Positions 9,556 through 44,779 of a stretch of DNA of 64,000 bases are shown piece after piece. The notes under the pieces are model-generated. The model ran no database searches. It was not told the DNA's origin and worked only from the letters and a program-made list of their open reading frames with translations. The position numbers and the translations under genes were made by a program. The stretch is taken from positions 128,001 to 192,000 of the forward strand of contig OZ253442.1 in the NCBI GenBank assembly GCA_965261085.1, written 5' to 3'. Within the stretch, counting starts at the first letter, position 1. Each line of letters starts with the position of its first letter. This DNA comes from a bacterium (lineage in GTDB: Bacteria > UBA8248).

Positions 9556-9894
9556 ATGGAAATCAAGACTGAGCAGGAAAACGGGACCTTGGTTGTGCAG
9601 GTTGATGGCCGCATCGACGGGGCTACCGCCCCTGAATTCGAGAGCATGATTAAGAACGTCATCAGCGACGACGACCGCGCCGTCATCGTCAATTTCGAGG
9701 GTGTCTCATATATCAGCAGCGCCGGCCTCCGCGCCGTCCTGCTGGTCGCCAAGCAGCTTAGTCAAAGCAATACGAAGTTCGCCCTGTACGCGCTCGGGGA
9801 ACTGACGCGCGAAGTTTTCGAGATATCCGGTTTCGACCGCATCATCCAGATCCACGGCTCGAAAGCGGACGCGCTCGCCTCAACCGCGAACTGA
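9556..9894 (+). CDS. STAS-domain anti-sigma factor antagonist (RsbV/SpoIIAA-like)
   Basis: GRIDG, YISSAGLRAVL with the phosphoacceptor Ser, VFEISGF; 112 aa. Confidence 0.92.
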   Translation: MEIKTEQENGTLVVQVDGRIDGATAPEFESMIKNVISDDDRAVIVNFEGVSYISSAGLRAVLLVAKQLSQSNTKFALYALGELTREVFEISGFDRIIQIHGSKADALASTAN

Positions 9895-10037: not shown

Positions 10038-12227
10038 TCACCGAGGCAACTCGATGATCATTTCCGTGAACTCATCAGGCTCGGTTTCCACTCGTATGCT
10101 TCCCCCATGCTGACGAATAATGTCGCTGGATAGGGAAAGGCCGAGCCCGGTGCCCTTGTCCGTCGGCTTGGTCGTGAAGAAGGGGTTGAATATCTTCTCG
10201 ACGACTTCGGGCGGCATACCGCTCCCGTTGTCACGAATGCGGATCTCGATGCCGTCCGGCCTGCACCTGGTGAAGAGGCGAAGGGTGGGGTCGTAACGCG
10301 GCGCATCTTCGGCGGCTGAGGCGGCGTGACTTTTTCGTCTCTCGTCCGTGGCGTAGCTGGCGTTGCTCACCATGTTCAGGAAGACACGGCCCAAATCCTG
10401 TGGAATGACCTCGCACTCCACCATGTCGGGGTCCAAATCCCAATCGATCGTGAGGTTGAAATTCGGGTCGGCCGCCCGGGCGCTGTGATAGGCGAGACGC
10501 GCGTGCTCTTCGAGCAGGGTATTGATATTGGTCGGCTGCGCTTCGCCTGAACCCCGGCCCATCTGGAGCATGCTCTCCACGATGTTGTTGGCCCGTTCCC
10601 CGTGTTCGCGGATGCGCTTGAGGTTGCCGGTGAGGTCCTCTCCGATTTCGTTGATGATCTCGATCGGATCTTCCTCGTCCTTTTTTTTCTCCTCCTTATC
10701 CGTTTCTTGCCCATTTTCCTGTCCGTTGCCGCCGAGTTGCGCCACCTTCTCCAACTCTTCCAACAATTCCTCCATCAGCTCCTCGGAGACTTCCGAGAAG
10801 TTCTTGATGAAGTTCAGCGGATTCCTGATCTCGTGGGCCACGCCCGCCGTCAACTCACCGAGCGCCGCGAGTTTCTCGCGCATGACGATCTGATCCTGCG
10901 CCTTCTCCAGATCGCCCAGCGCGCTTTCGAGTTCCTCATTCTTGCCCTTGATCTCCTCGGCCAGCTTCTCCACCAGGTTCAGGCGCTGCACCTCCAGGGC
11001 GTGGCGGCGGAAGATTTCGAGCGCCGCGGCCATTTCCGCGACTTCGTCCTGCCCGCCGATGTCGACCTTCTCCTCCAGATCGCCGTCGGCCATTCGGCGC
11101 ATGCGGTCCGAGAGCCGCCCCAGCCGGCGCGACAGCACCCGGCCGATGAACAGCCAGCCGATCAGTACGGCGCCGATGAAGCTGATTGCGCTCAGCGCGA
11201 GCAGGATGTTGCCGCCCGTGCTGACGGCTTGGGCGGAATCCTGGGTGGCCTGCCGCGCGCTCTTGCGGGCCGTGCTCACCAGCGTTTCGGTGGCGGCCAG
11301 GATTTTCGCTTCCAGAGATTCGTGAAACGCGAGCAACTCACTCTGTTTCCTCTCGAGCTCCAGTTCACCCGCGCGCAGGTTGAAGCCCCCATCCTCCCCG
11401 ATGCTCAGTTCGATCATCTGCTCGAAGAGAGGCTCGAGAGCGGTGCGCACCGGAACCTCCCCGAGCGCGGCAAGACGCCGCCTGATGCCGCGCACCGTGG
11501 CCTCGAAACGCTCGCTCAGCGGTTCGAGCAGGGCGGCGTCCGATACGCTGAAGGCGGTGGCGAAAAGCTGCGTCGCGATGGTGGCGTCCGACCTTAAACC
11601 GGCGATGTAACGGTAGAGGTTGATTCCCTCTTCGGAGAAGTGTTTCTCGCGGGGGACGGCAGCCTCGTCGATTTTGCGATAGCCCGTTATCGCGTAGAAC
11701 AACTGATCGTCGATGGCGGGAACCATGACGTTGTTCAGCTCCTTGCGCACCCATGTGAGCTGGAGTTGCAGCGTATCGCGCTGATCGGTGAGGTCGAAGC
11801 GCTGCAACACCAATTGTTTGATGGCTCTGAGGTTCTCGATTAGCACGTCGCCGAGCTTCTTGATGCGCAGGGAGATTTCCTCGTTTACTCCCTGTCGTAT
11901 CAGCGCCGCCAGCGCAGTCTCGAACGCCTCCTGGTCATTGGCGACTTCGGTGGCGATCTGGTCCAGATTGTCGGGATTCACGACTGCGGCCAGGCGCGGC
12001 GCGGCGGCCACCAGGGCGCTGCTTTTCTGGGCGGTCTCGAAGGCGCTCGCCAGGAACGGAACGGTGCCCTCGTTCACGCGGTTCTGCACCTCTCCCACGA
12101 AAGCGAACGAGACCCATGCGACCACGCTCGCTATGACGGTGAGAGAGGCGGCGGCGCCGATGCTGAGGTAGAGTTGCATCGATATCTTGTAACGCTTGTC
12201 CAGGAGGTTTTTCAGCGCGCCTTTCAT
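10038..12227 (-). CDS. Membrane sensor histidine kinase (large helical periplasmic domain, TorS-like; HAMP; HisKA; HATPase)
   Basis: Two TM helices flanking about 300 aa, HAMP (DEVAEMA), GVAHEIRNPLNF, IRDNGSG and FFTTKPTDKGTGLGLS; start overlaps the upstream stop. Confidence 0.92.
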   Translation of the reverse strand: MKGALKNLLDKRYKISMQLYLSIGAAASLTVIASVVAWVSFAFVGEVQNRVNEGTVPFLASAFETAQKSSALVAAAPRLAAVVNPDNLDQIATEVANDQEAFETALAALIRQGVNEEISLRIKKLGDVLIENLRAIKQLVLQRFDLTDQRDTLQLQLTWVRKELNNVMVPAIDDQLFYAITGYRKIDEAAVPREKHFSEEGINLYRYIAGLRSDATIATQLFATAFSVSDAALLEPLSERFEATVRGIRRRLAALGEVPVRTALEPLFEQMIELSIGEDGGFNLRAGELELERKQSELLAFHESLEAKILAATETLVSTARKSARQATQDSAQAVSTGGNILLALSAISFIGAVLIGWLFIGRVLSRRLGRLSDRMRRMADGDLEEKVDIGGQDEVAEMAAALEIFRRHALEVQRLNLVEKLAEEIKGKNEELESALGDLEKAQDQIVMREKLAALGELTAGVAHEIRNPLNFIKNFSEVSEELMEELLEELEKVAQLGGNGQENGQETDKEEKKKDEEDPIEIINEIGEDLTGNLKRIREHGERANNIVESMLQMGRGSGEAQPTNINTLLEEHARLAYHSARAADPNFNLTIDWDLDPDMVECEVIPQDLGRVFLNMVSNASYATDERRKSHAASAAEDAPRYDPTLRLFTRCRPDGIEIRIRDNGSGMPPEVVEKIFNPFFTTKPTDKGTGLGLSLSSDIIRQHGGSIRVETEPDEFTEMIIELPR

Positions 12228-13411
12228 CACTTCTCCGGTCGCCGGATTTTTTCGGTCGGAATGTAACGGCCGCCCTCTCCGATGACGGTGAGGAAAACGG
12301 CGTCCGAGCCCTGGTTGTCGTCCTTGCCGTAGCGGAGCTTGAATCCGCCGAGGTCGATGTTGGCCGCACGGCGCAGACCCTTGAGAAGACAGTCGCGATC
12401 GGGCTTGCGCCCGCACAACTCAAGAGCACGAATGGCCAGTCTGCCGGCCATGTAGCCCTCGAAGGAAACGAAGCTGGGAGCCGCACCGGGCTTGTGGGCT
12501 TCCAGATCCCGGCGGTAGTCCGCCGCGATCTGGAGGTTCTCCGTCGTCGGGAATGGAACCACCTGGGTGACGTAGATACCAATGCCGGCGGGGCCGAGTT
12601 CACGCACGAGCGCATTGCTGCCCACGAAGGAGATCGTCACGAAAACCGGATTGAAATTCATATGGCGCGCCCAGGCGATGAAGGAAGCGACCGGCTTGTA
12701 GGCTCCCACGAGGACCACCGCCCCGGGGTTCGCGCGCCTGATGTCGAGCAGAGCCGTTTTGACCGCCGTCGTATTTCGTGGATAGACTCCGGTGACCGCC
12801 GGTTTGAGTTTGCGCCGCGCGAGGGCGCGACGAACGCCCCGGTAGCCCGCCAGACCAAAAGAATCGTCCTGATAGAGAACGGCTATCTTCTTGATGCCCA
12901 GGTCATTGATCAGCCGGTTCACCATCTCCTCGGTTTCCTGGAAGTAGGAAGCGCGCAGGTTGATGATGTTCTTCCACTTCGGATCGCGAAGGAAGGCGGC
13001 GCCGGTGAAGGGCGCGATATAGGGGACGCCCGCCTTCGCGGCGACCGGGGTGGCCGAGCGCGAGGTGGGCGTGCCGACGGCCCCGATGAGGGCGAAGACC
13101 TTGCTCTGTTCTATCAACCGGCGGGTGTTCAGGATGGCGGCTTCAGGCTCATACGCATCGTCGAGGGAGGTGATTTCGAGCCGGCGCCCGTGAATGCCGC
13201 CACGCACGTTCGCCGCGCGAAAGGCGGCTTCGATGCCGAGGCGCATCTCCTCGCCCAGAGCCCTCGCGGGTCCGGTGAAGGCGGCGGACTGGCCGAAAAG
13301 AATCCGCTGGGGGGAAACCCCGGGCACGGCCGCGTGCGCCCCCGGCGCCGAACAGATAATCACTCCGGCAAGAAGGGAAAGCGCCCGGCGGATTCGGAGC
13401 GGGAGCCTCAT
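12227..13411 (-). CDS. Periplasmic ligand-binding protein (Leu/Ile/Val-type) with no adjacent transporter
   Basis: Signal peptide, ILFGQSAAFTGP, LDDAYEP, LIGAVGTPT, NLRASY..E and YQDDSFG. Confidence 0.88.
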   Translation of the reverse strand: MRLPLRIRRALSLLAGVIICSAPGAHAAVPGVSPQRILFGQSAAFTGPARALGEEMRLGIEAAFRAANVRGGIHGRRLEITSLDDAYEPEAAILNTRRLIEQSKVFALIGAVGTPTSRSATPVAAKAGVPYIAPFTGAAFLRDPKWKNIINLRASYFQETEEMVNRLINDLGIKKIAVLYQDDSFGLAGYRGVRRALARRKLKPAVTGVYPRNTTAVKTALLDIRRANPGAVVLVGAYKPVASFIAWARHMNFNPVFVTISFVGSNALVRELGPAGIGIYVTQVVPFPTTENLQIAADYRRDLEAHKPGAAPSFVSFEGYMAGRLAIRALELCGRKPDRDCLLKGLRRAANIDLGGFKLRYGKDDNQGSDAVFLTVIGEGGRYIPTEKIRRPEK

Positions 13412-13827
13412 TCACTCCTCCGCTTGACAAGGCGCATATGGTTCTTGTTCTCCTCCCGTCGATAGGACACCTCGTCCATCATCGTCCGCACCAGATGGAT
13501 GCCGAGCCCGCCCACGGCGCGGTCTTCGATGCTCGATTCGGTATCCGGTTCGGGCGCGTCGGTGAGAGGGTCGAACGGCCGGCCGTCGTCGATGATCTGG
13601 ATGCTCACCGCTTTCTCGTCCGAGACGAGTTCGATTTTGATTTCACCCTCTCCGCCGCCGCTGCCGTGGTTCACGACGTTGAGGACTAATTCTTCGAGCA
13701 CGAGGTCGACCTGGAATTCGATGTCGGGCGGCCAATCCTGCTCCCGGCTGAATTCCCCGATGGCGGCTTGAATGCGTGGGAGGTCGGCGACTTCAAACCC
13801 CATTTTCAAGGAAAGTTTCGCGCTCAT
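13408..13827 (-). CDS. Anti-sigma factor Ser/Thr kinase (RsbW-like HATPase)
   Basis: EELVLNVVNHG (N box), DDGRPFDP, GGLGIHLV. Confidence 0.92.
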   Translation of the reverse strand: MSAKLSLKMGFEVADLPRIQAAIGEFSREQDWPPDIEFQVDLVLEELVLNVVNHGSGGGEGEIKIELVSDEKAVSIQIIDDGRPFDPLTDAPEPDTESSIEDRAVGGLGIHLVRTMMDEVSYRREENKNHMRLVKRRSE

Positions 13828-15041
13828 TCACTCCCTCCGCGGCGATAAAGGGTCAGGCAGGTAATATCATCGAATTGGGGTGCTCTGCCCGCGAAATCCT
13901 TCACCGACTCGAAAACCTTCGTGTTGATCTCCTTGGCGGAGGTCGGCGGCGAACCCCCGAGAATCCCCCGGAGGCGATCGAGACCGAACTGCTCGGTCTT
14001 CTCGTTCTCGGCCTCCGTCACGCCGTCGGTGTAGAGCACGAGGGCGTCACCTCTCGCGAGAGTCGCATTGTACATGTCGTAGTCGAATTCAGGCGCGATC
14101 CCCAGAGCGACCCCCGGAGCCTGGGCAAGCAGACTCGAGGAGCCGTCGGCATGGAGGATGACCGGGGGATTGTGCCCGCCGTTGGCGTAAACGAGTTCCC
14201 CGGTTGTGGAGTCGAAAATGGCGAAGAAGACGGTGACGAACATCACGGCGTCGTTGTTCTCCTGAAGGAGGCGGTTCACCTCGCTCAGCACGTCACCGGG
14301 CCGGAGCAGACGATTCACCTCGCCGAGCACGTCGCCCGGATTGGCGCGCGCGACGGCGACGCTGTTGAGCAGCGTGCGGCTCGACATCATGAAAAGGGCG
14401 GCGGCCACCCCCTTGCCCGAAACGTCGGCGACCATGATTCCGATGCGGTCGTCGGCCAAATTGATGACGTCGAAGAAATCACCCCCCACGTCACGGGCGG
14501 GTTCCATACCCCCGAATATCTCGTAGTGAGGGCTTTCGGGAAATTGGGTCGGCAGGATCGATTGCTGCATCCTGCTGGCCAGGTCGAGATCGCTCCTGAG
14601 CGCGACCAGCTTGTCGCGCGCATCAAGGGCCTCGCGCAGCATGGCGAGGTGCTCCAGTGTCCGCTCTATGGTGATCCGCAAATCCTCGAAGTCGATCGGC
14701 TTGGTGACGAAGTCGAATGCGCCCCTGTTCATCGCCGTGCGGATGTTCTTCATGTCCCCGTAGGCCGAGACGACCACGGAGCGCACATTGGGGTCGACCG
14801 AGGGGATTTGCTTGAGCAGCGTGAGGCCGTCCATCTCCGGCATGTTGATGTCGGTGAGCACCATGTCGATAGGCTCGCCGCCGCCGTTATCGTTGAGGCG
14901 CTCGAGCGCCTCGACCCCGTTGCGCGCGAAGACGAACGAATAGCGGCCCCGCCGAATCTCGCGCCGCATGCGCTGGAGCACGAGTTGTTCGAGATCGGGC
15001 TCGTCGTCCACCACGAGTATCCTGTGGGGCTCTTCCATCAC
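13824..15041 (-). CDS. Receiver domain plus SpoIIE/PP2C phosphatase (RsbU-like)
   Basis: REC (VVDDE, DINMP, TKP), then VGGDFFD, ADVSGKG, NGGHNPP, YTDGVTEA and DDIT. Confidence 0.93.
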   Translation of the reverse strand: MMEEPHRILVVDDEPDLEQLVLQRMRREIRRGRYSFVFARNGVEALERLNDNGGGEPIDMVLTDINMPEMDGLTLLKQIPSVDPNVRSVVVSAYGDMKNIRTAMNRGAFDFVTKPIDFEDLRITIERTLEHLAMLREALDARDKLVALRSDLDLASRMQQSILPTQFPESPHYEIFGGMEPARDVGGDFFDVINLADDRIGIMVADVSGKGVAAALFMMSSRTLLNSVAVARANPGDVLGEVNRLLRPGDVLSEVNRLLQENNDAVMFVTVFFAIFDSTTGELVYANGGHNPPVILHADGSSSLLAQAPGVALGIAPEFDYDMYNATLARGDALVLYTDGVTEAENEKTEQFGLDRLRGILGGSPPTSAKEINTKVFESVKDFAGRAPQFDDITCLTLYRRGGSE

Positions 15042-15478
15042 GGCCTCCCTTCAGCCAGCATCTTGTCACGCGCCTCGAACGCCTCCCGCATATTAGCGAG
15101 ATGCTTCACGGACTTGTCGATGGTCAACCGCAGATCCTCGAAATCGATCGGTTTGTTGAGAAAATCGAACGCGCCCCGGTTCATCGCCGTGCGGATGTTC
15201 TTCATGTCCCCATAGGCGGAGACGATCACGCAGCGGACCTTGGGGTCGTAAGCCGGGATTTGTTCGAGCAGCGTGAGGCCGTCCATCTCCGGCATGTTGA
15301 TGTCCGTAATGACGATGTCGATTTCACCGTCCTCTTTCAGGCGTTCGAGCGCCTCGACCCCGTTGCGCGCGAAGACGAACGAATAGCGTCCGCTGCGAAT
15401 CTCGCTCCGCATGCGCTGCTTCAAGAGGTCTTCCAGGTCGGGTTCGTCGTCGACTACGAGTATCTTGTGCGAATCCAT
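15038..15478 (-). CDS. Single-domain response regulator
   Basis: ILVVDDE, TDINMPEMDG, NKP; nearly identical to the REC domain of the next gene. Confidence 0.9.
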   Translation of the reverse strand: MDSHKILVVDDEPDLEDLLKQRMRSEIRSGRYSFVFARNGVEALERLKEDGEIDIVITDINMPEMDGLTLLEQIPAYDPKVRCVIVSAYGDMKNIRTAMNRGAFDFLNKPIDFEDLRLTIDKSVKHLANMREAFEARDKMLAEGRP

Positions 15479-15909
15479 CGTCCTGGTCTCCCCAACTCTC
15501 AGACTTTGCCCGACCAACGCTCAAACATTTTCGAACGCCCGCTCAATGTATATAAGACTCGCGCGTCGCGCAACTCATTTCTCACTCCGCCTCGTGTCCG
15601 AACGAGGCTGCGCGGCGGCCCGCAACCCCCTGAAACCAGGGCTTCACCGGCGCTCGCTCCCGGCTCGACACCGCTCGACCGGCGGATTTCATCCATCCCG
15701 ATTTCTCCTCCCGCGAGTGTTCCGACCTCCCGATCCCGTGAACCGATTCTGCGCCGAATGGAGATGAAGCCGTGAAAATTTCATCCGCCGCCGGTTGTTC
15801 CGGCCCTCTCGTTTGCGTATCTTGGAGTAGCCATCCGCCAGGATGGCGTGCGCCGCCGACAGCACTTGAAGAGAAAGGCCCTGCCTTGTCCCGCAAACAA
15901 TCAAGAAAA

Positions 15910-16473
15910 ATGAAAAATCCCGGTCCCACAGGGCGCGGCGCTTCGCGTCCGGCGGCGGCCATAGGTTCAAAGAACAACAGCACGGCCCCGCTCGTCTGGG
16001 CGAGCGTCATCGTCGCGGTCGTCTTCGGCATCTATTACTTATCGGGCGCATCCGCGAACAAGGCGCGCGACGCGCCCTCCCTCGGCAACCGCCACATCCG
16101 CGTCGGCACGAGCCCCGCCATCTCCTATAATACGGACCCTCCCACCTCGGGGCCCCATTATCCGACCATCGTCCGCTGGGGCGTGCACCAAAGGCCCATC
16201 GACAAGGGCTTCCAGGTGCATAACCTCGAAGACGGCGGCGTGCTCGTTCAGTATAACTGCGGCGATTGTCCCGAACTCGTGAAAAAACTCAGAAATCTGG
16301 TGCTCGGCTACCCGAAGTTCGTCATCCTCGCCCCCTACCCGTCCATGAAACACAGAATCGCGCTCACCGCCTGGGGCAAAATAGATACGCTGGACGCTTT
16401 TGATGAAAAGCGCATCACCTCCTTCATAAACGACTTTCGCGGCATCGACCACCATGTGCGGGGAAGCAGATAA
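15910..16473 (+). CDS. DUF3105-type membrane-anchored protein
   Basis: N-terminal TM helix; YNTDPPTSGPHY, VHNLEDGGV.VQY and IALTAWG; start could be TTG 15886. Confidence 0.8.
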   Translation: MKNPGPTGRGASRPAAAIGSKNNSTAPLVWASVIVAVVFGIYYLSGASANKARDAPSLGNRHIRVGTSPAISYNTDPPTSGPHYPTIVRWGVHQRPIDKGFQVHNLEDGGVLVQYNCGDCPELVKKLRNLVLGYPKFVILAPYPSMKHRIALTAWGKIDTLDAFDEKRITSFINDFRGIDHHVRGSR

Positions 16474-16479
16474 GGCTTC

Positions 16480-18252
16480 TCAACTCCCCCCGCCGCGCGC
16501 CGCGCCTGCGGCTTCCACGCGAACCGTCACGATGTCCGTATCGTGGTATTGCTGGTGGCGAACCGAGGAGGCGAGGTGGCGCAGCAGTCTGAGCGAGACT
16601 TCTCTCTCGATCGGCGCGGCTGCCGTCTGCTCGCCGAGCAGCGCGATTTTATCCTGGAGATTCTCCTCACCGCCCGCGGCGACGAACTCCAACACCGCGC
16701 CGCCGTCTTCTTTGTGGGCCACCACGAGCAGACGCCGCCGCTCGCGACCCTCGTCGGCTTCCTCCTGGCGCAGAAGCGTCAGCAGCGTCTCCTCACCCGC
16801 GGCGTCCAGGCGATGCGCCATCGCCGCATCCCAGCCACCGGCCGAGGCGAACTCGCCGAGAAACTCCCTTATCTTCGGTAAGGCCGAGAGGTCGAACGCC
16901 ACTTCGAGCCTGCTGCGCCGCGGTTCGGTGAGCTCGACGAACAGGGTCATGATCATGGCGACGAGGCCGCCGGCGGTCATTCCGTTACCCAGCAGGCCGC
17001 CCGCGAACGTGGAGAAATACTCAGGGTAAATCACTCCGTTCTGAAAGCCGACGCCCGCCCAGAACGCGACGCCCGCGACCAGCCCCTTGCGGTAGTCGAC
17101 TCCGTCCTGAACGATCATCCGCATGCCGACCACGAAGAGCATCGCCAGCAATACGGTGATGTAGGCCGCGGCGACCGGACCCGGTATCGCGAGCACCACG
17201 GCGACGAGCTTGGGAAGAAACGCCAGGGAGAGGAACACCAGCCCGGCGGCGACTCCGACGCTGCGCGCGCCGACGCCGGTGAGTTCGGTGACGGACACGC
17301 TCGTCGAATAGGTCGTGTTCGGCACCGTCGCCAAAAGGCCGGAGAGCAGGTTGCCCACCCCGTCGGCGGCCACCGCGCCCTGCACCGCCTTAAAATCCAC
17401 CGCCCGGGGCCGCCGCCAGGACACGCGCTGGATGGCGGCGGCGTCGCCCACGGTTTCGATGGCGCCGATCAGGGTCACGAACACGAACCCGGGAAGAAGC
17501 GCCCAGAAAACCGGCCCGAAGCTCAGATCCAGGCCCGGCCACGCGCCGTGGGGAAGGCCGATCCACGAGGCCCCGGCGACGCGGGCCGTATCGTAGATGC
17601 CGAAATAGCCTCCGATGAGCGAGCCCGCGACCACGCCGACCACCGGCGCCCACAGGCGCAGCGCCCCCGTCGCCTTGAGCGCGATGCCGACGATGACGGC
17701 CACTGTCGCCAGAGCGCTCAACGGGGCGGCGAGCGGCGGGCTGTCCTTCGGCACGTCCTTGAGCATGCCGAAGACTATCGGCATCACCGTCACCGCTATC
17801 AGCATGATGACGGTCCCCGCGACCGTCGGCGTCAGCACCCTCCTGAACAGGGAGAGGCGTTCTGAGAGCACGAACTGAAACAGCGAGGAGGCGAGAACCA
17901 GCGTGGCGAGCATCGCAGGTCCTCCCTGGGCGAGCGCCGCGATGCATACCGCGATGAAGGCGCCCGAGGTGCCCATGATGAGCACGTAGCCCGCGCCGAA
18001 ACGGCCGATGCGCACCGCCTGGAGCACCGTAGTCGCGCCGCAGACCGCCACCGCGGCGAACACGGCCCACGAGAGATAGGCCTCGGTTCCGCCGGCGGCC
18101 CGCACCACGATCGCAGGCGTGAAAACGATACCGCCCACGCAGAGGATGGCGAGTTGCAAACCCAGACCGAACGCGAGAAAGAACGGCGGTTTTTCGTCGG
18201 CTTCGTAGCGTACGCCGGTGTTCACGTGCTGGCCGGAATCCCTGGCGCTCAT
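16480..18252 (-). CDS. NCS2 (xanthine/uracil permease) family transporter fused to a C-terminal degenerate RsbW-like domain
   Basis: FGLGLQ, MGTSGAF, PTVAGTVIMLI, ETVGD, ADGVGNL, PNTTYSTS and FLPK..A....IP.PV; the last approx. 145 aa are soluble and align with the RsbW-like protein in this window. Confidence 0.85.
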   Translation of the reverse strand: MSARDSGQHVNTGVRYEADEKPPFFLAFGLGLQLAILCVGGIVFTPAIVVRAAGGTEAYLSWAVFAAVAVCGATTVLQAVRIGRFGAGYVLIMGTSGAFIAVCIAALAQGGPAMLATLVLASSLFQFVLSERLSLFRRVLTPTVAGTVIMLIAVTVMPIVFGMLKDVPKDSPPLAAPLSALATVAVIVGIALKATGALRLWAPVVGVVAGSLIGGYFGIYDTARVAGASWIGLPHGAWPGLDLSFGPVFWALLPGFVFVTLIGAIETVGDAAAIQRVSWRRPRAVDFKAVQGAVAADGVGNLLSGLLATVPNTTYSTSVSVTELTGVGARSVGVAAGLVFLSLAFLPKLVAVVLAIPGPVAAAYITVLLAMLFVVGMRMIVQDGVDYRKGLVAGVAFWAGVGFQNGVIYPEYFSTFAGGLLGNGMTAGGLVAMIMTLFVELTEPRRSRLEVAFDLSALPKIREFLGEFASAGGWDAAMAHRLDAAGEETLLTLLRQEEADEGRERRRLLVVAHKEDGGAVLEFVAAGGEENLQDKIALLGEQTAAAPIEREVSLRLLRHLASSVRHQQYHDTDIVTVRVEAAGAARGGGS

Positions 18253-18457
18253 CTCGCATCCTTCCCGGCTGGAAAGCGGGTCTTCGGTGGAGCGGAAACC
18301 TGCGTTCGATGTGGTCGCAACCGAACCGGATTTTCTCACACCTCTTTTTGTCCCTCAAGAAAAAAGGCCTGCGAAGGACATCGATGGGCGAATGTTCAGG
18401 GTTTGAGGCGAAAATCGCATTTTTTGCGTATTTTTTTGGCGGGCAATTACAATTTTG

Positions 18458-18485
18458 TTGACGAAACGAACACGCCATATATACT
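18458..18485 (+). promoter_or_regulatory. Sigma70-type promoter upstream of the RiPP precursor
   Basis: TTGACG-N16-TATACT, with AT-rich sequence upstream. Confidence 0.5.
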
Positions 18486-18637
18486 TTTCGGGTAACGTCT
18501 TCTTATTTTGCCTGGACATAAGGGCGGCAAAGCAACCACTCTCTCCCGGACACGGCGGCTATGGAGCCCCGGCGGGAGAAAGTGAGGAAGCACTGCCCGC
18601 TTTTGGAGCAGGCTTATCATCTGGAGAACTCGAAACA

Positions 18638-18925
18638 GTGAAAACCGTAGAGGAAGTGCGCGAGGAAATTATCAGAAAGGCGAGCGAGAACGAGGCGTTC
18701 CGCTCCGAATTGCTGGCCGACCCCAAGGCCGCCATTGAACGGGAATTGGGGGTCACCATTCCCGATGGGTTCAAGATCGGCGTGCACGAAGACAACATCA
18801 TGAGCTTTCACCTGGTGTTGCCGCCGGCCGAGTTGAGCGAGGCGGACCTGAGCGCCGTCGTGGCCGGAACGCAGACGATGCAAGACTTCGCCAACGCCTG
18901 GAACAACTTGAACCAGAACTCCTGA
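18638..18925 (+). CDS. NHLP (nitrile hydratase-like leader peptide) family RiPP precursor
   Basis: GTG start after GGAG; IIRKASENEAFRSELLADPKAAIE..LG..IP, HLVLPP, ELSEADLSAVVAG (double-Gly-type site); predicted core TQTMQDFANAWNNLNQNS. Confidence 0.88.
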   Translation: MKTVEEVREEIIRKASENEAFRSELLADPKAAIERELGVTIPDGFKIGVHEDNIMSFHLVLPPAELSEADLSAVVAGTQTMQDFANAWNNLNQNS

Positions 18926-19120: not shown

Positions 19121-20218
19121 ATGATGTCTGAGAATTTCGGGGACGTCTTTCCAAGGTTGCGCCGCTTTTTCCCATCCTCCCTGCTTGACGACCCGTGGTG
19201 GGATCGGCTGGTGGAGCGCGTCGGCGAACTTCCGAGTTGGCTGACCCTGAACTACGCAGCCTTCGAGTTCCGGTTGGGAGACCCTGCGCCCGCCGCCGAT
19301 TATTTCGTCTCGGTTACGCCCGGGCGTCCATCCATGGAGTATTACGTCCACCTGGGCGAGGACGCAAAACCGGACTCCGCCGAGGCGGCCCTCGCCCGGG
19401 TCTACGCCCGCATGAACGGGGCGGGCTCCCCTTCCGAATCCTCTCTCGCCGGCTGGTTCAGAGCGTCGATGCTCGAATACGACATCGCGGAGATTCCTTT
19501 GAACCAGCGACAGCCCCCGGGCGTGTTCCTGGCGCTTCAGCCTCAATCCGAACTGGATGAAAACCTCGTGGGTTCGCGAACTCCTGACCGCCTGGCCGCC
19601 ACCATAGTGAGCGCGGTCGGGTGGGACGAGGACGAGGAAGAGCGCCGCGCCGTGGAACGGGCCTTCGCCGCCTTGCCCCGGGACGGCGTGGTGGATCAGA
19701 TCGGCGCCGCGGCGCAGCGCGAGCCGCGCTCCATCCGCCTCATCGTGGACGGGTTGAAAGGGCGCAACATGCCGGCTCTCCTGAAGCGGCTGAAATGGGA
19801 AGGCCCCACCCGGAAGGTGATGGACGTTTTAGAGGAGATGCGCGACGTGACGCCGGTCTTCCGGCTCGCGGTGGACGTCGGCGCGCACGGCGTGGGGCCG
19901 CGCCTGGGCCTCGAGATGTACAGGCCGAGAAAACCCTCGAACCTCGACTACTGGCTGACCTCGGGGCGCAACGCCTGGCGTCCCGTCGTGGACTACCTCG
20001 AAGAGATGAAATGGTGTCTGCCGGAAAAGGGAGACGGCCTGCGCGCATTCCCGGGAATCGAGCGAATTTTCGATGAAAACGGCATGTCCATCCTGTATAA
20101 GGGAATCAACCACTTCAAGCTGTCCATCGAGGGCGACGCCGTCGAGGCCAAGGCCTACGCCGCCCTCGCCTACTTCCGGCTCTACGCTCCCTCCGAGGAA
20201 GAATCTGAGCCGGCGTGA
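19121..20218 (+). CDS. Putative RiPP maturase, possibly an ABBA-like prenyltransferase
   Basis: Directly follows the precursor; motifs FEFRLG, LEYD, IRL, DVG..GVGPRLGLE, LPEK..L..FPG and HFKL...EAKAY, which I recognise from proteins encoded near NHLP/Nif11 precursors; function inferred. Confidence 0.5.
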   Translation: MMSENFGDVFPRLRRFFPSSLLDDPWWDRLVERVGELPSWLTLNYAAFEFRLGDPAPAADYFVSVTPGRPSMEYYVHLGEDAKPDSAEAALARVYARMNGAGSPSESSLAGWFRASMLEYDIAEIPLNQRQPPGVFLALQPQSELDENLVGSRTPDRLAATIVSAVGWDEDEEERRAVERAFAALPRDGVVDQIGAAAQREPRSIRLIVDGLKGRNMPALLKRLKWEGPTRKVMDVLEEMRDVTPVFRLAVDVGAHGVGPRLGLEMYRPRKPSNLDYWLTSGRNAWRPVVDYLEEMKWCLPEKGDGLRAFPGIERIFDENGMSILYKGINHFKLSIEGDAVEAKAYAALAYFRLYAPSEEESEPA

Positions 20219-20309
20219 TCGGGGGGGGCGGGGGGCGGTCAATCAGACGGCGGGGTGGTTTTTTGGAGAAGTAATTATACGCTTGTCTAACTATATAAGG
20301 AATTTATAT

Positions 20310-21560
20310 TCAAATTGATATTTTGGTTTGCTTGGGCAACAATTTGTCAAAATCACTTTTATTAATCAAATTATCAGCAAATCCTCTCATGACAATATAT
20401 GGCCGCATCAGTGGACTGTTAAAACGATAGCGTATCTGACGTTTTGGACCCGTTCGATAAAGAAGTCCTCCACGTTCTTTACCACTCAATTCTTTCAGGT
20501 GACGGGCGAAATTTGGAATATCATATGAGCGATTCGTGATAATTCGCAAAGGTTCCCGAACATTCGCTGCAGAGAAATATCCGAGGTCGTCATTCTCAGC
20601 GAATGCACAAGCCAAAACAACTTCTCTGAAGATGTGACCTGGTTGCTGGCTCTTGGTTGCACGATAATACGCCATCTTGATTGATTCTTGCCATTGTTCG
20701 AGGGCTCTTTCCATTCCTTCGTTTACGTCTTGATTTTCAAGCTCTTTACTTTCTCTCTTTATTGCCACCTTTGTAGCGTGAAGCGCGAGCAGGTGGGTAA
20801 CATATGGCAAACCCTGAGACAGGCTAACAATTTCTGATTTTGCATCATCTTTAATTTTCATCTGTAGTCGCCCCATGCCTTTTGCAACAATTTCGGCAAT
20901 TTCAGTGTTTGACATACGCGGCATCGGTACTTGGACAAGCGCTCGTTCGATGGATTGATGCTCGCTGATCAATTCGTCTACAGAATCTGCGACACCGATC
21001 AGAAGAATTGTAGCTTTAACACTATAATCAGAAAGACTTTTGATTGTGTCAGCCATTACGGCGGGAATTTCACTGTTCACTGTCCGATCGAACTCATCAA
21101 ATACTGGAACAAGAATAATTCCGTGTGAAAATTCATCTAAAATTCTACGAATATCTTCTGGAGATAAATTTTCAGGAAGGCTCTCCACAAGTTTCCGTCT
21201 AACACTAACTTCTTGTTTGGTAAATCCAACCCCAGGACGTGTCGCAGTTAAGGTGATGTTGTCAAACTGTTTTTTCCACAGACTTGTGAATGTATCAGTT
21301 GTGTCACAATTTACGCGTGGAAGGAGAAATCTTCCGCCAGTTTTGTGCAAAAAACTTAAAAGGACATTAGATAATGAAGTCTTTCCAACTCCACGCTCAC
21401 CATAAAGAACCGCATGGTAACCACGCTGAGAAATAGTGTCGATTATCTTATTTACTTGGTCAATCCTACCCGAAAATAATTCAGCCTCACTGATTGGGGC
21501 ACCCGGCGTGAACACTTGGTTCGCATTAAACTCTAACTCAGCCCAATAATCGCTCGCCAT
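20310..21560 (-). CDS. AAA+ ATPase (Orc1/Cdc6-like, with probable C-terminal winged helix)
   Basis: FTPGAP...LFSGR, Walker A YGERGVGKTS, Walker B VFDEFDR, SQGLPYVTHLL; AT-rich. Confidence 0.85.
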   Translation of the reverse strand: MASDYWAELEFNANQVFTPGAPISEAELFSGRIDQVNKIIDTISQRGYHAVLYGERGVGKTSLSNVLLSFLHKTGGRFLLPRVNCDTTDTFTSLWKKQFDNITLTATRPGVGFTKQEVSVRRKLVESLPENLSPEDIRRILDEFSHGIILVPVFDEFDRTVNSEIPAVMADTIKSLSDYSVKATILLIGVADSVDELISEHQSIERALVQVPMPRMSNTEIAEIVAKGMGRLQMKIKDDAKSEIVSLSQGLPYVTHLLALHATKVAIKRESKELENQDVNEGMERALEQWQESIKMAYYRATKSQQPGHIFREVVLACAFAENDDLGYFSAANVREPLRIITNRSYDIPNFARHLKELSGKERGGLLYRTGPKRQIRYRFNSPLMRPYIVMRGFADNLINKSDFDKLLPKQTKISI

Positions 21561-21576
21561 ACGCCACCTCAAGCGT

Positions 21577-21735
21577 CTAGTAAAGAAGTAAACTCATATA
21601 ATAACACCTTAATCTTGTCAAGTATTAGGCTGAACGCCGTCGTTTCGCCTTGCGACTAATAAACTGCTAAACTCATATAGTAATGCCTTAATCTTGTCAA
21701 GTATGAGACTGAACGCCGTCGTTTCGCTTTACAAC
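21577..21735. repeat. Tandem 79-bp imperfect direct repeat (2 copies) between the divergent ATPase and DUF488 genes
   Basis: TAAACTCATATA..CCTTAATCTTGTCAAGTAT..CTGAACGCCGTCGTTTCGC starts at 21589 and again at 21668; each copy has TTGACA on the minus strand. Confidence 0.85.
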
Positions 21736-21853
21736 CCGAGGGTAAGCTTTGCCTAACGCGGAAGGAGCTAATCAACGATGCAGTAGATCGTCAGGCAAAG
21801 CGCATCGCCTTCGTGGACGAGAATCTGACTAATCCTTCTGCCGGAGCAATCCA

Positions 21854-22291
21854 ATGAAATTATTCACCACCGGATTTACCAATAAGTCGGCATGCCGTTT
21901 CTTTGACCTACTTCTGGAATCGCGTGTGAAAAGGATTTTGGGCGTTCGAATCAACAACGGGTCGCAACTCGCCGGTTTCGCCAAGAAGGACGATCTCTCG
22001 TACTTCCTCGAAAAGATTTGTGGAATGGATTATGTTCATCTGCCAGACCTCGGCGCCACGAAGGAGTTATTACGGGAGTATCAAGCAGGAAACTTAGATT
22101 GGGAGACCTATGAAAAGCGTTTCACAGAGTTGATGCGTGAACGACGCATTGAGGAAACGACTCCAAAAGATGTTCTAAGCGATGGCTGTCTTTTGTGTAG
22201 CGAAGATCAGCCACATCATTGCCACCGTCGACTCGTAGCGGAATATCTAAACGAACATTGGAGAGACATCGATATCTCCCACTTGCGTTAA
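21854..22291 (+). CDS. DUF488 family protein
   Basis: FTTGF, SQLAGFAK..DL.YFL and LLCSE..PHHCHRRLVAEYL. Confidence 0.85.
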   Translation: MKLFTTGFTNKSACRFFDLLLESRVKRILGVRINNGSQLAGFAKKDDLSYFLEKICGMDYVHLPDLGATKELLREYQAGNLDWETYEKRFTELMRERRIEETTPKDVLSDGCLLCSEDQPHHCHRRLVAEYLNEHWRDIDISHLR

Positions 22292-23181: not shown

Positions 23182-23502
23182 CTACGAAATCGCGGCGTCC
23201 CCCGCCACGAGCACGACGTGATCGGTTTCAATGCGCCGCCTGAAATGCTCGGGCACGGAATCCCACACGAATACGTCCACGCGAAAAGGCAGGCTGCTCT
23301 CCTCTAACGCTTCTTTGAGATCGTAGACTCTTCGGCTTTGGGCGGGCTCGGCGAACACGACCATATCCAGATCGGATTTGGGGCGCGCTTCTCCCCTCGC
23401 GCGGGAGCCGTACACCCAGGCGGCGGTGTTCGGCAGATGCTTATCGAGCAAACCCAGAATGAGCGCGCGCTGCGCCTCGGTGACGTCGATGGTCTTGGTC
23501 AT
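23182..23502 (-). CDS. Minimal nucleotidyltransferase (MNT antitoxin)
   Basis: YGSRARG...SDLD and LPFRVDV; ATG overlaps the stop of the upstream HEPN frame (ATGA). Confidence 0.88.
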   Translation of the reverse strand: MTKTIDVTEAQRALILGLLDKHLPNTAAWVYGSRARGEARPKSDLDMVVFAEPAQSRRVYDLKEALEESSLPFRVDVFVWDSVPEHFRRRIETDHVVLVAGDAAIS

Positions 23503-23911
23503 TCCCATGTCCGTTTGGTCATGGTTTGGTAGAGACCCGCGGCGTCTTCAATGAAATCACCCACTATCTCCAAAGCGGCTCGCGCCTTTTCGCCGCTGTA
23601 GGCGTGGGCGGTATCGCGGCATAGCCCAGCCATCGCTCCAGAGGCGCAGGGAGCATCAAATCGTTCTCGAAGGCGAGTCTGAAGACGGGCTTGGGGCTGT
23701 TGGGCGCATTCGCGACGCCCAACTCTTCGACCAGGTATCGCTTGGGCACCTTCCAGAGGCAGTCGTAGCAGGTCTCGAAACGCTGGATGACCGACTCGGC
23801 GACGGCTTCTCTGAGCAGTTCGGGTAGTACGGCGTCGGGTTTCCGATAATTCTCATACTGCTCTTCCAGACGTTTGAGGGACATCCGAAAATTGTCGTAC
23901 TCAACCATCAT
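23499..23911 (-). pseudogene. HEPN (HI0074-type nucleotidyltransferase substrate-binding) toxin, frameshifted
   Basis: IQRFETCY...WK and SPKPVFR; after WLGYA the homology continues in another frame as DTAHAYSGEKA...YQTMTKRTWE*. Confidence 0.8.
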
Positions 23912-24322
23912 ACGCCTCACAACGTCGAAAAACCTTCATCCGCATCGGGCCTCGACCATCATCCCACAAGGCATGAATTTGTCAATAAATCGCACAGGCG
24001 CATTTGCCCGCATCTGCGGTGCGGCGGGACCGGGCCGGTTCGGGTAGATTCCGGGAAGCGTTTCTTGGAGGAGAACACATGCGTAGATGCCGAAATTCAG
24101 AGGGCGCGCTTCACTTTAGAGATCGCACGAGGGACGCAAGAATTCAGAATAATGCAAATAATCAAATTTCCTGTAAAATTAGATAAATTGACGAGGTTAT
24201 TCGATAAATTAACGGGGTATTTCTAAAAATAAACGAACCATAAAACGGCTCTTTTTCAGCGCAAAACGGCCCTTTTTCGGCTGAAAACCTGGGCTTTCGC
24301 CCCTTTTCGGGGCTAAACGGCC

Positions 24323-41975: not shown

Positions 41976-43226
41976 TCAGGCAACGCCCATTTTCTCGCCA
42001 TAGGCTTCGAGGGCCTGCTCGAAACAGGCGAGTGGCGCGCGCACCACGCCCGCGCCCACCTGCCCGACGCCGGGCTCTTTGTGCGCGATGCCTGTGTTGA
42101 TGACGGGCGTGACGCCGAGTTTCACCACCTTGGTGATGTCGATACCCGTGGGAACCCCCTGAAAATCAAGAGAGGGAATCGTCCACTCGGGGTTTCGGCC
42201 CTGGGTGATCTCATACATGGAGCGGGAGTAATTCAGCGCATCCGCCGCACTCCCCGCGCCTACGAACCCGACGACGGCGGGCGCCGCGGCCATGGCGAAC
42301 CCACCCAACCCCATCGTCTCGATGATTGTGGAATCGCCCATGTCCGGATTCGCGTCGTCCTCGCCGAAGCCCGGGAAATACAACCCTTCTGGCATCTCCA
42401 CCGGCGCCGTGAACCACTCATCCCCCGTCGCGCTCACCCGAATACCGAAGTCCGTTCCATTGCGGCACATCGCCGTGACGATGCTCGACGCCTCGATATC
42501 GCGCACCGGGTCCATCACCGCCTTTCCGGTAGCCATCGCGACGTTCAGGAAAAACTGATCGTTTCCGCCGATGAAGGACAAAACCTCCTCCAGCGCCCCG
42601 CTTTCCCTCACGACGCGCGCCAGCGCAGGAGCCGCCTCGCGCATGAAGAGACTCGTACACGCCACGTTGCGCTGGTGCATTTCATCACCCATCGAAAGCC
42701 CCCGCGCGATGATGCTCTTAAGAGGCATACCCCCTATGGCCTGGAGGGCGTCTGAGAGAGCGGGCGCCAGGCGCTCCGCCAGCCAGCGAAGCCGGTTCAG
42801 CACCTCTTCGTCGTTTCCGCCGAAGCGCATCACCTTCCCCAGACCTTCGTTCAGGGCGCAGTACGCCCGGTTCCCGAATTTTCTGTTCTCCACGATCATC
42901 ACCGGCATCGAGCGCGTGGTGATGCCCGTCATGGGGCCGACGGCGTCGAAATGATGATTCGGATGGAACACGATCCCGCCCGAGGCGGCGAGCGCTTCGC
43001 CTGAGGTCAAATCTTCCGCCCAGCCTTCCAGAACGGCCGCCCCCGCGACGGCCCCGCGCAGGGGACCGCACATCCGCTCCCACTCGATCGGGGGGCCTGC
43101 ATGAAGGAGAACGCCATCCTCCAAACCCGGTATCACCTCACCCGCCGGACAAACGTCCACCAAAACGGGTTCCGCTTCGGTGATGCGGGTGAGCGCCTCC
43201 GTGTTCGCGTCCGTGATCACGCCCAT
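41976..43226 (-). CDS. DUF1116 (YlbE/YahG-like) protein
   Basis: LHAGPP, VGPMTG, MGDEMHQRN, RNGTDFGI, DMGDS.I.E and INTGIAH. Confidence 0.88.
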   Translation of the reverse strand: MGVITDANTEALTRITEAEPVLVDVCPAGEVIPGLEDGVLLHAGPPIEWERMCGPLRGAVAGAAVLEGWAEDLTSGEALAASGGIVFHPNHHFDAVGPMTGITTRSMPVMIVENRKFGNRAYCALNEGLGKVMRFGGNDEEVLNRLRWLAERLAPALSDALQAIGGMPLKSIIARGLSMGDEMHQRNVACTSLFMREAAPALARVVRESGALEEVLSFIGGNDQFFLNVAMATGKAVMDPVRDIEASSIVTAMCRNGTDFGIRVSATGDEWFTAPVEMPEGLYFPGFGEDDANPDMGDSTIIETMGLGGFAMAAAPAVVGFVGAGSAADALNYSRSMYEITQGRNPEWTIPSLDFQGVPTGIDITKVVKLGVTPVINTGIAHKEPGVGQVGAGVVRAPLACFEQALEAYGEKMGVA

Positions 43227-44479
43227 CCAGCCATCTCCCCCCAGGTCGTCTCCGCCACGTTTTCCACGATGATGCGCCCGCCCTTCACCACGAATCTCTT
43301 CTCGGGCTGATCGATGAGGACGTCGTCGAAATTCCGAGAATCGAGAACCACGAAATCGGCTGCGCAGCCCGTTCTCAGGCCGTAACCATCCTCCACCCCC
43401 AACGCCTTAGCGCCGTTGGTCGTGAAAAGATCCGGAACCACAGCCCTGTCCGATGCGCCGCTCATGTGGAGCACATGGGCGAGGAGGAGGCCAATTTCGA
43501 GCAAATCGCCGCGACCCGAGGGCGTAAAGGCGTTCCGGATGTTGTTCGATGAAATAGCCACGTTGACGCCCGCACTGAGTAAGTCCTTCACGGGGGCGAG
43601 GCTCCTGAAGCGAGGCGGCTCCTCTCCCCTGCCGCCCAGGAACAAATCCGTCGCCGGCAAGGGCAGGACGGAGATGCCCGCCTCCAGAATCTTCTCGATG
43701 ACCGGCGCGGCCTCATCCCGCGACATGGCGCCCGGGGAAGTGAGATGCCCCACGGCCACCCTGCCCTGCAAACCGGCGGCCATCGTGCGGGCGGCCACGG
43801 ATTCGATGTTCCTTACCCGGGGGTCGTCCGCGAAATCGAGATGAAAATCCAGACCACAGCCAAACGCCTCGGCCATCGCGAAAACGATATCCAGATGCCG
43901 CCCGGCGTCCAGGTCGTTATACGGGATTCCGCCCACCAGGTCCCCGCCCATCCGCATGGCCTCGCGCATCAAATCCTCCGTTCCCGGCTGCTGCTCGATG
44001 CCCTCCTGCGGAAAAATGACGAGTTGAAAATCCGCCAGGCCGGCGTATTTCTCCTTGAGCGCCAGGGCGACTTCCACCCCCTTCAGTCCGACGATGGGGT
44101 CGACCTCCACCTGCGCGCGAAACCAGGTGGCGCCGTGCCGGATGCACATGCGAAGCGCGCGCTCGGCGCGCTCCATCATGTCTTGTTTCGTGACGCTTTT
44201 TTTCAGGGCGAGCGTGATGGATATGGCGTCCTCGAGCGTGCCGGAGAGATTGGGCTCGCGTTCTTCCAGAAACGCCTTGTCCAGATGAATATGGCTCTCC
44301 ACGAACGCGGGCAGCACGACGCGCGCGCCCAGGTCGATCTCCTCGCAGCCGGCATCGTTCGCGATTCCAGGCGATATTCCCGAAAACCGGCCTCCGGCGA
44401 CGCACAAATCCACCAAGGGTCCCCCTAAGTCGATTCTGGCGTTCCTGAAAATTCTATCGTCCGTCATCTCGGCGCTCAT
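43217..44479 (-). CDS. Metal-dependent amidohydrolase (cytosine deaminase-like)
   Basis: ESHIHLDK, FPQEG, DFHLD, GHL and ADFVVLD. Confidence 0.88.
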   Translation of the reverse strand: MSAEMTDDRIFRNARIDLGGPLVDLCVAGGRFSGISPGIANDAGCEEIDLGARVVLPAFVESHIHLDKAFLEEREPNLSGTLEDAISITLALKKSVTKQDMMERAERALRMCIRHGATWFRAQVEVDPIVGLKGVEVALALKEKYAGLADFQLVIFPQEGIEQQPGTEDLMREAMRMGGDLVGGIPYNDLDAGRHLDIVFAMAEAFGCGLDFHLDFADDPRVRNIESVAARTMAAGLQGRVAVGHLTSPGAMSRDEAAPVIEKILEAGISVLPLPATDLFLGGRGEEPPRFRSLAPVKDLLSAGVNVAISSNNIRNAFTPSGRGDLLEIGLLLAHVLHMSGASDRAVVPDLFTTNGAKALGVEDGYGLRTGCAADFVVLDSRNFDDVLIDQPEKRFVVKGGRIIVENVAETTWGEMAGWA

Positions 44480-44779
44480 GATCATTTAACCGGAGTGAAA
44501 TATCACCTTAACAGAAACGAAACGCGCATCGGCCATAGTCGCAAAATGGAGAAACTCGTCATTGCGAACTCTATCTTTCCGCGCGAATTTTCGCCAGCGA
44601 AAAAGGAGGAAGCCAAAAAAATCCCGTTTCCCGTCAACTTGACCCACACCTGGAATCGTGAACATAATGAAGGATTCAGGGTCATATTTCATCTGCTTCT
44701 CACGCGGCTTGGCGACCCGGTGACGCGAGGTGGCGTTTGATCGTGCGGCGCGCCATTCCAGGACTAAAGAGAGACTTGC

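Follow-up and report, generated by a model that had tools for sequence, protein, structure and literature searches.

A permease gene with an additional C-terminal domain

We analysed a stretch of 64,000 nucleotides from a bacterium of the lineage UBA8248 (GenBank assembly GCA_965261085.1, contig OZ253442.1, positions 128,001 to 192,000; hereafter the window), in which a gene on the minus strand encodes a non-canonical transporter of the NCS2/NAT fold whose last membrane helix leads, via about five basic residues, into a degenerate RsbW/SpoIIAB domain of ~135 residues (Table 1). A complete partner-switching module lies 3-7 kb away, comprising a STAS protein with its conserved Ser, a stand-alone RsbW-like kinase, a response-regulator receiver fused to a PP2C phosphatase, a periplasmic binding protein and a TorS-like sensor kinase.

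The only Pfam match of the permease open reading frame (ORF) was PF00860, and its scores fell below the cut-offs of the NCBIfam models ncs2 (162.5 against 291.8 bits), pbuX (185.4 against 414) and NCS2_1 (36.7 against 40). The true start of the gene is probably the internal ATG listed in Table 1, because its homologues are mostly 580-590 amino acids long (94 of 120 fall in the 580s). Motifs were counted in 76 members of the family, using the NAT motif definition given in the accessible text of PMC5972032. A preliminary description of this DNA had remarked that the NCS2 signature region is divergent, and this applies to the family as a whole: neither the signature Asn nor the signature Gly occurred in any of the 76 sequences, and the first position was occupied by Thr, Val, Ile, Ser or Asn in at least 71 of them. 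The signature, located in transmembrane segment (TMS) 10, reads T-S-V-S-V-T-E-L-T-G in the window permease. TMS1 showed Gln-Leu instead of the canonical Gln-His; the Gln was invariant (76/76) and was followed by Leu (65), Ile (9), Gly (1) or Val (1), but never by His. The E-x-x-G-D motif of TMS8 was present in the window protein (ETVGD; EAVGD in XanQ), and across the family its Glu was found in 32 of the 76 sequences (Gln in 38) and its Gly in 33. The available part of PMC5972032 notes rare Gln-Met/Ile variants of the TMS1 motif and the existence of divergent prokaryotic NAT branches without assigned function.

The window protein shares with UraA, XanQ, UacT and UapA the Pfam family, the TMS8 motif and the final Thr-Gly of the signature (76/76 in its own family), but differs from them in an extra tail of ~145 amino acids, in the Gln-Leu of TMS1 and in the loss of the signature Asn and Gly. 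Because the canonical TMS1 and signature residues are lost and the scores stay below the NCBIfam cut-offs, we leave the substrate of the family unassigned; the earlier remark that it might not be a nucleobase appears reasonable and, judging from the sequence motifs, this branch without the substrate-binding signature probably carries something else. No riboswitch or other Rfam RNA was found upstream of the permease gene, and the permease neighbourhood gave no clue to the substrate.

The C-terminal tail resembles RsbW-type anti-sigma-factor kinases

The interval that the preliminary description had singled out, positions 16480-16925, corresponds exactly to the soluble part of the protein beyond the last membrane helix (border at ..LFVELTEPRR/SRLEV..) and comprises ~145 residues. 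In an alignment with the Escherichia coli K-12 proteins UraA (429 amino acids), XanQ (466) and UacT (482), all of which stop shortly after the last helix, the tail had no counterpart, as had been proposed for canonical NCS2 proteins.

The resemblance of the tail to the stand-alone RsbW-like protein of the window, first noticed by eye, was borne out by several approaches. All strings on which the comparison had been built are present, i.e. FDLSALPKIREFLGEF..W, EETLLTLL, FVAAG, EVSLRLLR and YSTSVSVTELTG in the permease, and FEVADLPRIQAAIGEF..W, EELVLNVV, IIDDG and GGLGIHLVR in the 139-residue protein. BLASTP aligned the two directly (32.3 bits, E 6e-7, 13/48 identical), and hhalign, comparing 42 tails with 34 RsbW-like proteins, gave a probability of 88.8% (E 2.5e-6) over 79 columns that match tail positions 10-91 to RsbW positions 4-82 and pair GEETLL with LEELVL and FVAAG with IIDDG, in the same way as the comparison by eye. 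PF13581 (HATPase_c_2) was matched weakly and below threshold by 10 of the 42 family tails (best E 2.2e-4), and the 17 other Pfam families found among these tails were each matched by a single member, none of them recurring. The same family was matched by two of 69 longer representatives (best score 26.2 bits against a cut-off of 27.4), and precomputed PF13581 annotation was carried by three of 120 listed short forms. When the search was reversed and the RsbW-like profile was run against the 6812 ORFs of 80 loci, the 11 true RsbW-like proteins came first and were followed, among the matches listed, only by tail-bearing permeases (E 1e-4 to 0.07).

The preliminary description had named in advance, as a check of its proposal, that the tail should adopt a GHKL fold, and the predicted structure came out accordingly. 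The AlphaFold2 model of the tail (mean pLDDT 84.4, pTM 0.80) gave 17 Foldseek matches in the PDB at E<=1e-3, and ranks 1-10 were all taken by anti-sigma-factor kinases, namely UsfX (8ih8, 8jzt), RsbW (6m37, 6m36) and SpoIIAB (1l0o, 1th8), with E values from 7e-7 to 6e-5 (TM 0.62/0.73 for the best); ATP-binding domains of classical histidine kinases ranked lower, with much weaker scores. In the ESM Atlas, 18 of the 30 nearest clusters belonged to a set in which PF13581 has a share of 15%, which we take as a lead only. Since BLASTP, hhalign, the recurrent PF13581 matches, the reverse profile search and Foldseek agree, we accept that the tail has the predicted RsbW/SpoIIAB (HATPase_c_2, GHKL) fold, a Bergerat-type alpha/beta sandwich, a conclusion that the model supports. 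The element order of RsbW, SpoIIAB and UsfX (strand, two long helices, two-strand hairpin, lid, short helix, two strands) is repeated in the tail, which has the same size and aligns with them by profile in its N-terminal half.

Two sequence searches of the PDB were discarded. The tail itself retrieved only designed armadillo-repeat proteins, matches that look compositional, and the tail profile retrieved only GAL4 and centrin (E 0.3-0.6).

Loss of the ATP-binding residues

In GHKL ATPases the N-box Asn holds Mg-ATP, the Asp-x-Gly of the G1 box contacts the adenine, and the glycines of the G2 box form the ATP lid. In the stand-alone RsbW-like protein of the window and 33 aligned homologues, the corresponding residues (N50, D80, G82, G106, G107 and G109) are invariant. 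The preliminary description had claimed that all three motifs are lost from the permease tail, and a survey of 279 unique tails extends this loss to all of them. The position of the N-box Asn is T56 in the window tail and is occupied by Thr (205), Ser (45), Ala (11) and Cys (5) across 278 tails, with no Asn among these four commonest residues. The G1 Asp, at position 89 (IIDDG replaced by FVAAG), has given way to Ala (231), Val (17), Ser (16) and Gly (7) in the 279 tails. The G2 stretch reads V/I/L-S-L-R, and GGLG corresponds by position to EVSL, a pairing made by eye and by structure that lies outside the hhalign alignment.

In their place the tails display a nearly invariant polar set of their own: E51 (276/279), E52 (279/279), N95 (275/279), S117 (272/279), R119 (274/279) and H130 (277/278), which the alignment places on the N-box helix, immediately behind G1, on the G2 helix and on the strand that follows. 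The lid region (residues 91-120) is the least confident part of the tail model, with pLDDT values of 61-73. The absence of the Mg-ATP residues across the 279 unique tails supports the view that the tail is a CATALYTICALLY dead kinase domain, as far as motifs predict catalysis.

Distribution and conservation of the fusion

Of 7999 clusters scored in a search of a large protein collection with the tail region, 3342 reached E<=1e-3, and PF00860 was carried by 119 of the 120 clusters among the matches listed. Among representatives at 50% identity, which were searched exhaustively, 613 matched at E<=1e-3, and 370 did so at E<=1e-10. With one genome scanned for each species, at least 596 loci were confirmed. 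All counts of neighbourhoods, modules and loci given below refer to the best 80 of these at least 596 loci (L001-L080), all of them in metagenome-assembled genomes (MAGs). They include Nitrospinota, Nitrospirota, Alpha- and Gammaproteobacteria, Binatia, Acidobacteriota, Latescibacterota, Verrucomicrobiota, Gemmatimonadota, Rhodothermota, Thermodesulfobacteriota, Actinomycetes and others, and in their sources the family members listed are named permease, hypothetical or partial protein. A tblastn search of a plasmid collection with the tail gave no match.

The family is multi-copy: tandem paralogues occur in L046 (three copies) and L080 (two copies), several genomes give two separate permease loci (contigs OY843592.1, OZ242279.1, CAXXVU020000002.1 and OZ241991.1), and in each lineage one paralogue clade only adjoins the signalling module. 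Phyla are intermixed throughout the permease tree, and the permeases of L011, L014 and L067, whose MAGs carry the labels Binatia, Bryobacterales and Thermodesulfobacteriota, differ by end branches of only 0.007-0.02; such near-identity across phyla reflects either recent gene transfer or binning errors.

As far as we have seen, the tail domain is confined to this transporter. No convincing stand-alone tail was present among the short matches inspected (19 representatives and 46 matches of at most 200 amino acids): the starting point of nearly all lies within the last membrane helix or before it, the ends of a few are garbled, and about three, located on contigs of 2.5-12 kb, start at the border of the domain. 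Four candidates for new architectures, in which the tail was joined to an integrase arm (P0017), DctM (P0130), a thiolase (Thiolase_N; P0144) or a PAS domain (P0170), were rejected, their junctions lying inside structural elements; they are probably assembly chimeras. Over 2701 pairs, the mean pairwise identity of the tail was 0.668 and that of the membrane domain 0.650, with the tail being the more conserved part in 65% of them. The tail is conserved as much as the membrane domain, which argues for a function under selection.

A proposed role for the tail

What this function might be is suggested by the transporters of the same architecture. According to the accessible text of 10.1101/518209, the SLC26 family shares the 7+7 architecture and carries a regulatory STAS domain, and the bacterial STAS domain of SLC26/SulP proteins is described as required for stability and function in the available part of PMC8256260. 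By analogy, we consider it rather probable that the tail is a built-in cytoplasmic module, both regulatory and dimerising, at which a partner or a ligand bound in the remodelled pocket would modulate transport. It would thereby play the part that the STAS domain has in SLC26/SulP transporters. RsbW and SpoIIAB are dimers. UraA and UapA form tight dimers that are required for transport (PMC5972032, in its accessible part), and because the transporters are dimeric and the linker measures only five residues, the two tails may be brought together and pair beneath the transporter dimer. A partner protein or a small ligand might then bind the former nucleotide pocket and change the freedom of movement of the transport domain, either restraining or freeing it. 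For the window lineage and one lineage of Nitrospirales, the most plausible partner would be the STAS protein of the adjacent module.

Several points weigh against this proposal. A purely structural role of the tail, in folding or stability, would explain its conservation equally well. The proposal draws on sequence, neighbourhood and a predicted model of the tail, and the pocket itself is placed by alignment to GHKL motifs and not by coordinates: E52, N95, S117 and R119 are presumed on this basis to surround the old ATP site. The window tail gave no Pfam or NCBIfam match even at E<=10 and does not reach the gathering score of PF13581, and the hhalign match covers only the N-terminal 79 columns. 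Finally, most of the family members examined are at least 50% identical to the window tail, so that the counts lean on a fairly tight group.

The partner-switching module as a candidate partner

The genes from 15517 down to 10038, all on the minus strand, form an operon-like row to which the STAS gene is convergent (Table 1). With a STAS protein that retains the conserved Ser, an intact RsbW-type kinase and a PP2C phosphatase, the set comprises the components by which a partner switch is recognised. The SYISSAGLR segment of the STAS protein is invariant in 11 homologues. The sensor kinase probably starts near the end of the binding-protein gene, since its homologues in the other loci begin there; its periplasmic sensor is TorS-like (partial match to TIGR02956, 1.7e-48), and together with the preceding Peripla_BP_6 gene (10038-13411 for the two) it resembles a ligand-sensing pair of the TorT/TorS type that feeds the receiver-PP2C phosphatase. 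The permease gene stands outside the operon of the module, because the DUF3105 gene on the opposite strand intervenes.

Table 1. Features of the permease gene and of the adjacent signalling module (positions in the window)
Feature	Position	Strand	Basis and remarks
Permease ORF	16480..18339	minus	619 amino acids from GTG; probable true start ATG 18252 (M30), giving 590 amino acids; ORF list, PF00860, homologue lengths
Membrane domain Xan_ur_permease (NCS2/NAT fold)	17047..18165	minus	ORF residues 59-431; Pfam PF00860, E 1.1e-42
Position of the NAT signature in TMS10, here TYSTSVSVTELTG	17275..17313	minus	Thr, Ser, Ser replace Gln/Glu/Pro, Asn, Gly; alignment with UraA/XanQ/UacT
End of last membrane helix and short basic linker, LFVELTEPRR	16915..16944	minus	Joins strand 1 of the tail directly; sequence, secondary structure of the model
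Folded C-terminal domain, degenerate RsbW/SpoIIAB-type GHKL (predicted)	16513..16914	minus	Tail residues 11-144, ORF residues 476-609; AlphaFold2, Foldseek, hhalign, motif loss
DUF3105 gene	15772..16473	plus	PF11303, 8.9e-26; convergent with the permease gene; kept in 6 loci only
Response regulator, single-domain	15038..15517	minus	Pfam
Response-regulator receiver fused to PP2C (SpoIIE) phosphatase	13824..15041	minus	Pfam
Stand-alone RsbW-like Ser kinase/anti-sigma-type protein, 139 amino acids	13408..13827	minus	PF13581, 7.4e-27; N-box Asn, DxG and GGxG intact
Periplasmic binding protein (Peripla_BP_6)	12227..13411	minus	Pfam
Sensor histidine kinase (TorS-like sensor, HAMP, HisKA, HATPase_c)	10038..12416	minus	ORF as listed
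Single-domain STAS protein (anti-sigma-factor antagonist type)	9556..9894	plus	PF01740, 5.1e-20; TIGR00377, 78.4 bits against a cut-off of 53.45

The preliminary description had gone one step further and proposed that the tail serves this STAS protein as a pseudo-kinase docking site, so that the phosphorylation state of the STAS protein gates transport or, conversely, transport feeds the cascade. The RsbW-like kinase would then phosphorylate the STAS protein and the receiver-PP2C protein would dephosphorylate it. This model is a special case of the regulatory role preferred above, with the partner named, and we regard it as possible but doubtful; the transceptor role, with gating by the phosphorylation state of the STAS protein, is something we can only infer. 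The expected co-occurrence with STAS genes was borne out in part. In 11 of the 80 loci the permease has homologues of the STAS protein, the RsbW-like protein, the receiver-PP2C phosphatase, the binding protein and the sensor kinase all within 10 kb of it, and six of these loci (L001, L003-L006 and L008) have the arrangement of the window. The other five, all from Nitrospirales (L039, L043, L061, L072 and L079; the module arrangement was confirmed by Pfam for L061), have a different gene order in which the RsbW-like gene directly abuts the permease gene, convergent with it, and the STAS gene comes next. In the remaining 69 loci neither phmmer nor profile searches detected a STAS gene or an RsbW gene at a distance of up to 10 kb, and the tail is equally conserved there, which speaks against this model. 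The tail is conserved with or without the module nearby, and its core role therefore cannot depend on this neighbour.

When 76 permeases were placed in a maximum-likelihood tree, the sequences linked to the module fell into two non-sister clades from two phyla, separated by well-supported branches (support of 100 for the Nitrospirales). At least three changes are needed to explain the linkage on this tree, one of them being L002, which lies on a short contig, and none of 500 shuffles gave so low a number, i.e. the linkage is clustered. The permease and the module are the only genes common to both types of locus. Two phyla have kept the linkage although the gene order was rearranged, which points to a functional connection. 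This support is real but limited: the transfer of a block could also have produced the linkage in the two clades, no tail residue is common to both clades and rare (<25%) elsewhere, and the module-linked tails score no better against the RsbW profile than the unlinked ones. Co-transcription is made unlikely by the convergent gene next to the permease, DUF3105 in the window and the RsbW-like gene in the Nitrospirales.

Further observations favour a STAS partner. The structure that the tail matches best is that of UsfX bound to a STAS antagonist (8ih8), and none of the 59 ORFs scanned in the window has a sigma-70-family domain that could be the output of the module, which leaves this output open. 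There is also a precedent for a division of roles among RsbW paralogues in Mycobacterium smegmatis, in which, according to the available text of PMC7693655, the STAS protein RsfB is phosphorylated by RsbW2 alone, RsbW1 binds RsfB in its unphosphorylated form, and a third paralogue acts purely by protein binding. The window resembles this SigF switch in that roles of the RsbW fold would be divided, here between one intact and one dead unit, but the RsbW proteins of M. smegmatis are soluble and control a sigma factor, whereas the dead unit of the window is part of a transporter and its binding of STAS is putative. A complex prediction of the tail with the STAS protein reached a score of 0.26 against a mark of 0.32 and was run without folded controls; we counted it neither for nor against.

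A version that makes the tail the output end of the partner switch is, in our view, unlikely to be the right one. According to it, the STAS protein, controlled by phosphorylation, would leave the kinase and dock on the dead-kinase tail, thereby gating uptake directly, or the conformational state of the transporter would sequester the STAS protein and thereby report flux.

Other readings of the tail

The tail could be a sensor of small molecules: a rebuilt Bergerat pocket (E51, E52, N95, S117 and R119) would bind a metabolite, perhaps the substrate of the permease or its product, and exert allosteric feedback without a protein partner. The alignment of the invariant polar residues to the N-box helix, the position just after G1 and the G2 helix agrees with such a pocket, as does the presence of the tail in every member of the family whatever its neighbours, in a neighbourhood that is otherwise unconserved. 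No candidate ligand stands out, however, the pocket is placed by alignment and not by coordinates, neither the Asp that binds adenine nor the glycine-rich lid is retained, and the lid region is where the model is weakest; we judge this reading improbable when taken by itself. The regulatory role preferred above, the docking of a STAS protein and the sensing of a small molecule overlap as explanations.

A membrane-tethered anti-sigma factor that releases a sigma factor according to the state of transport would fit the solved structures nearest to the tail, which include complexes of anti-sigma factors with sigma F (8jzt, 1l0o). Besides the lack of a sigma-70-family domain in the 59 window ORFs scanned, a sigma gene within 10 kb was found in only three of the 80 loci (queries: E. 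coli RpoS, FliA and RpoE), in each case RpoE-like and in unrelated positions, and we consider this explanation very improbable. That the tail is some unrelated alpha/beta domain, its resemblance being due to chance or composition, as the missing Pfam and NCBIfam matches of the window tail, the spurious PDB sequence hits (designed repeat proteins, GAL4, centrin) and an identity of only 9-21% to solved anti-sigma kinases might suggest, is hardly credible given that independent methods (BLASTP, hhalign, PF13581, the reverse profile and Foldseek ranks 1-10) converge on one family.

Other genes in the window and around the permease

The most frequent recurrent neighbour of the permease is a gene of the YCII family (~105 amino acids), present in 12 of the 80 loci (L011, L015, L018, L019, L031, L034, L037, L065-L068 and L071; PF03795 with 3.5e-14 for L067) and situated directly downstream of the permease gene in ten and just upstream in two. 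It is followed by the tripartite ATP-independent periplasmic (TRAP) transporter genes DctM (10/80 loci) and DctP (9/80).

Divergent from the permease gene, the window encodes a precursor of a ribosomally synthesised and post-translationally modified peptide (RiPP) of the NHLP-leader family (18455-18925, plus strand; TIGR03793 with 65.8 bits, cut-off 50.9) and, downstream of it, a protein of 365 amino acids (19121-20218, plus strand) without Pfam or NCBIfam match. Both genes adjoin the tail-bearing permease in L001, L004-L006, L008 and L013 (a gammaproteobacterial MAG). At a distance of 24 kb from the permease, on the minus strand (41976-44485), there are genes of the purine/allantoin-breakdown type encoding AllG, a subunit of oxamate carbamoyltransferase, and an amidohydrolase.

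Two stretches of the window, 20001-22000 and 1-2000, have a low content of guanine and cytosine (0.45 and 0.47, as compared to about 0.60 elsewhere) and are possibly acquired islands. The former contains genes for a STAND-type nucleoside triphosphatase (20310-21572) and a DUF488 protein, beyond which lies a pair of nucleotidyltransferase genes (23182-23920); the latter contains a gene for a protein with an HD domain.

Comparison with known systems and implications

Both domains of the protein are known, but their combination and the class of degenerate RsbW-type domain are new, in the sense that they are undescribed in the literature searched: full-text searches, which largely leave out subscription journals, found no description of a fusion of NCS2 with GHKL. 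Compared with RsbW, SpoIIAB and UsfX, the tail differs in being fused to a transporter, in the loss of the ATP motifs, in its own invariant set of residues (E51, E52, N95, S117, R119 and H130) and in the rarity of sigma-factor genes in its surroundings. The closest analogues in architecture are the SLC26/SulP-STAS proteins, which likewise join a transporter with a 7+7 inverted repeat to a C-terminal cytoplasmic domain from the partner-switching toolkit (10.1101/518209 and PMC8256260, in their accessible parts). In contrast to these, the permease belongs to Xan_ur_permease and not to Sulfate_transp, and the structural matches of its tail are kinases and not STAS domains, so that it would represent the kinase/anti-sigma side of the switch instead of the antagonist side. 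The SLC5/STAC sensor kinases (CbrA, CrbS) also fuse a transporter domain to a GHKL-containing signalling part, according to the accessible text of PMC9100948, but they possess full catalytic HisKA and HATPase_c domains and signal to a response regulator, whereas the permease lacks HisKA and carries a degenerate GHKL domain of the RsbW type.

Regulation by attached cytoplasmic domains is a feature of the 7+7 transporters, with the STAS domain of SLC26 as the textbook case, and our findings show that a sister family with this fold has acquired the opposite member of the RsbV/RsbW pair in a degenerate version. The tail offers a new class of pseudo-kinases in the GHKL superfamily with invariant residues of its own, and the permease is a candidate for the output of partner-switching cascades that lack a sigma factor. 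The family is also a warning that this branch of 'nucleobase permeases' does not have the substrate-binding signature. If the STAS protein does dock on the tail, the partner switch would target a transporter instead of a sigma factor, and the fusion would be the reciprocal of SLC26-STAS, each of the two 7+7 families carrying one half of the RsbV/RsbW pair.

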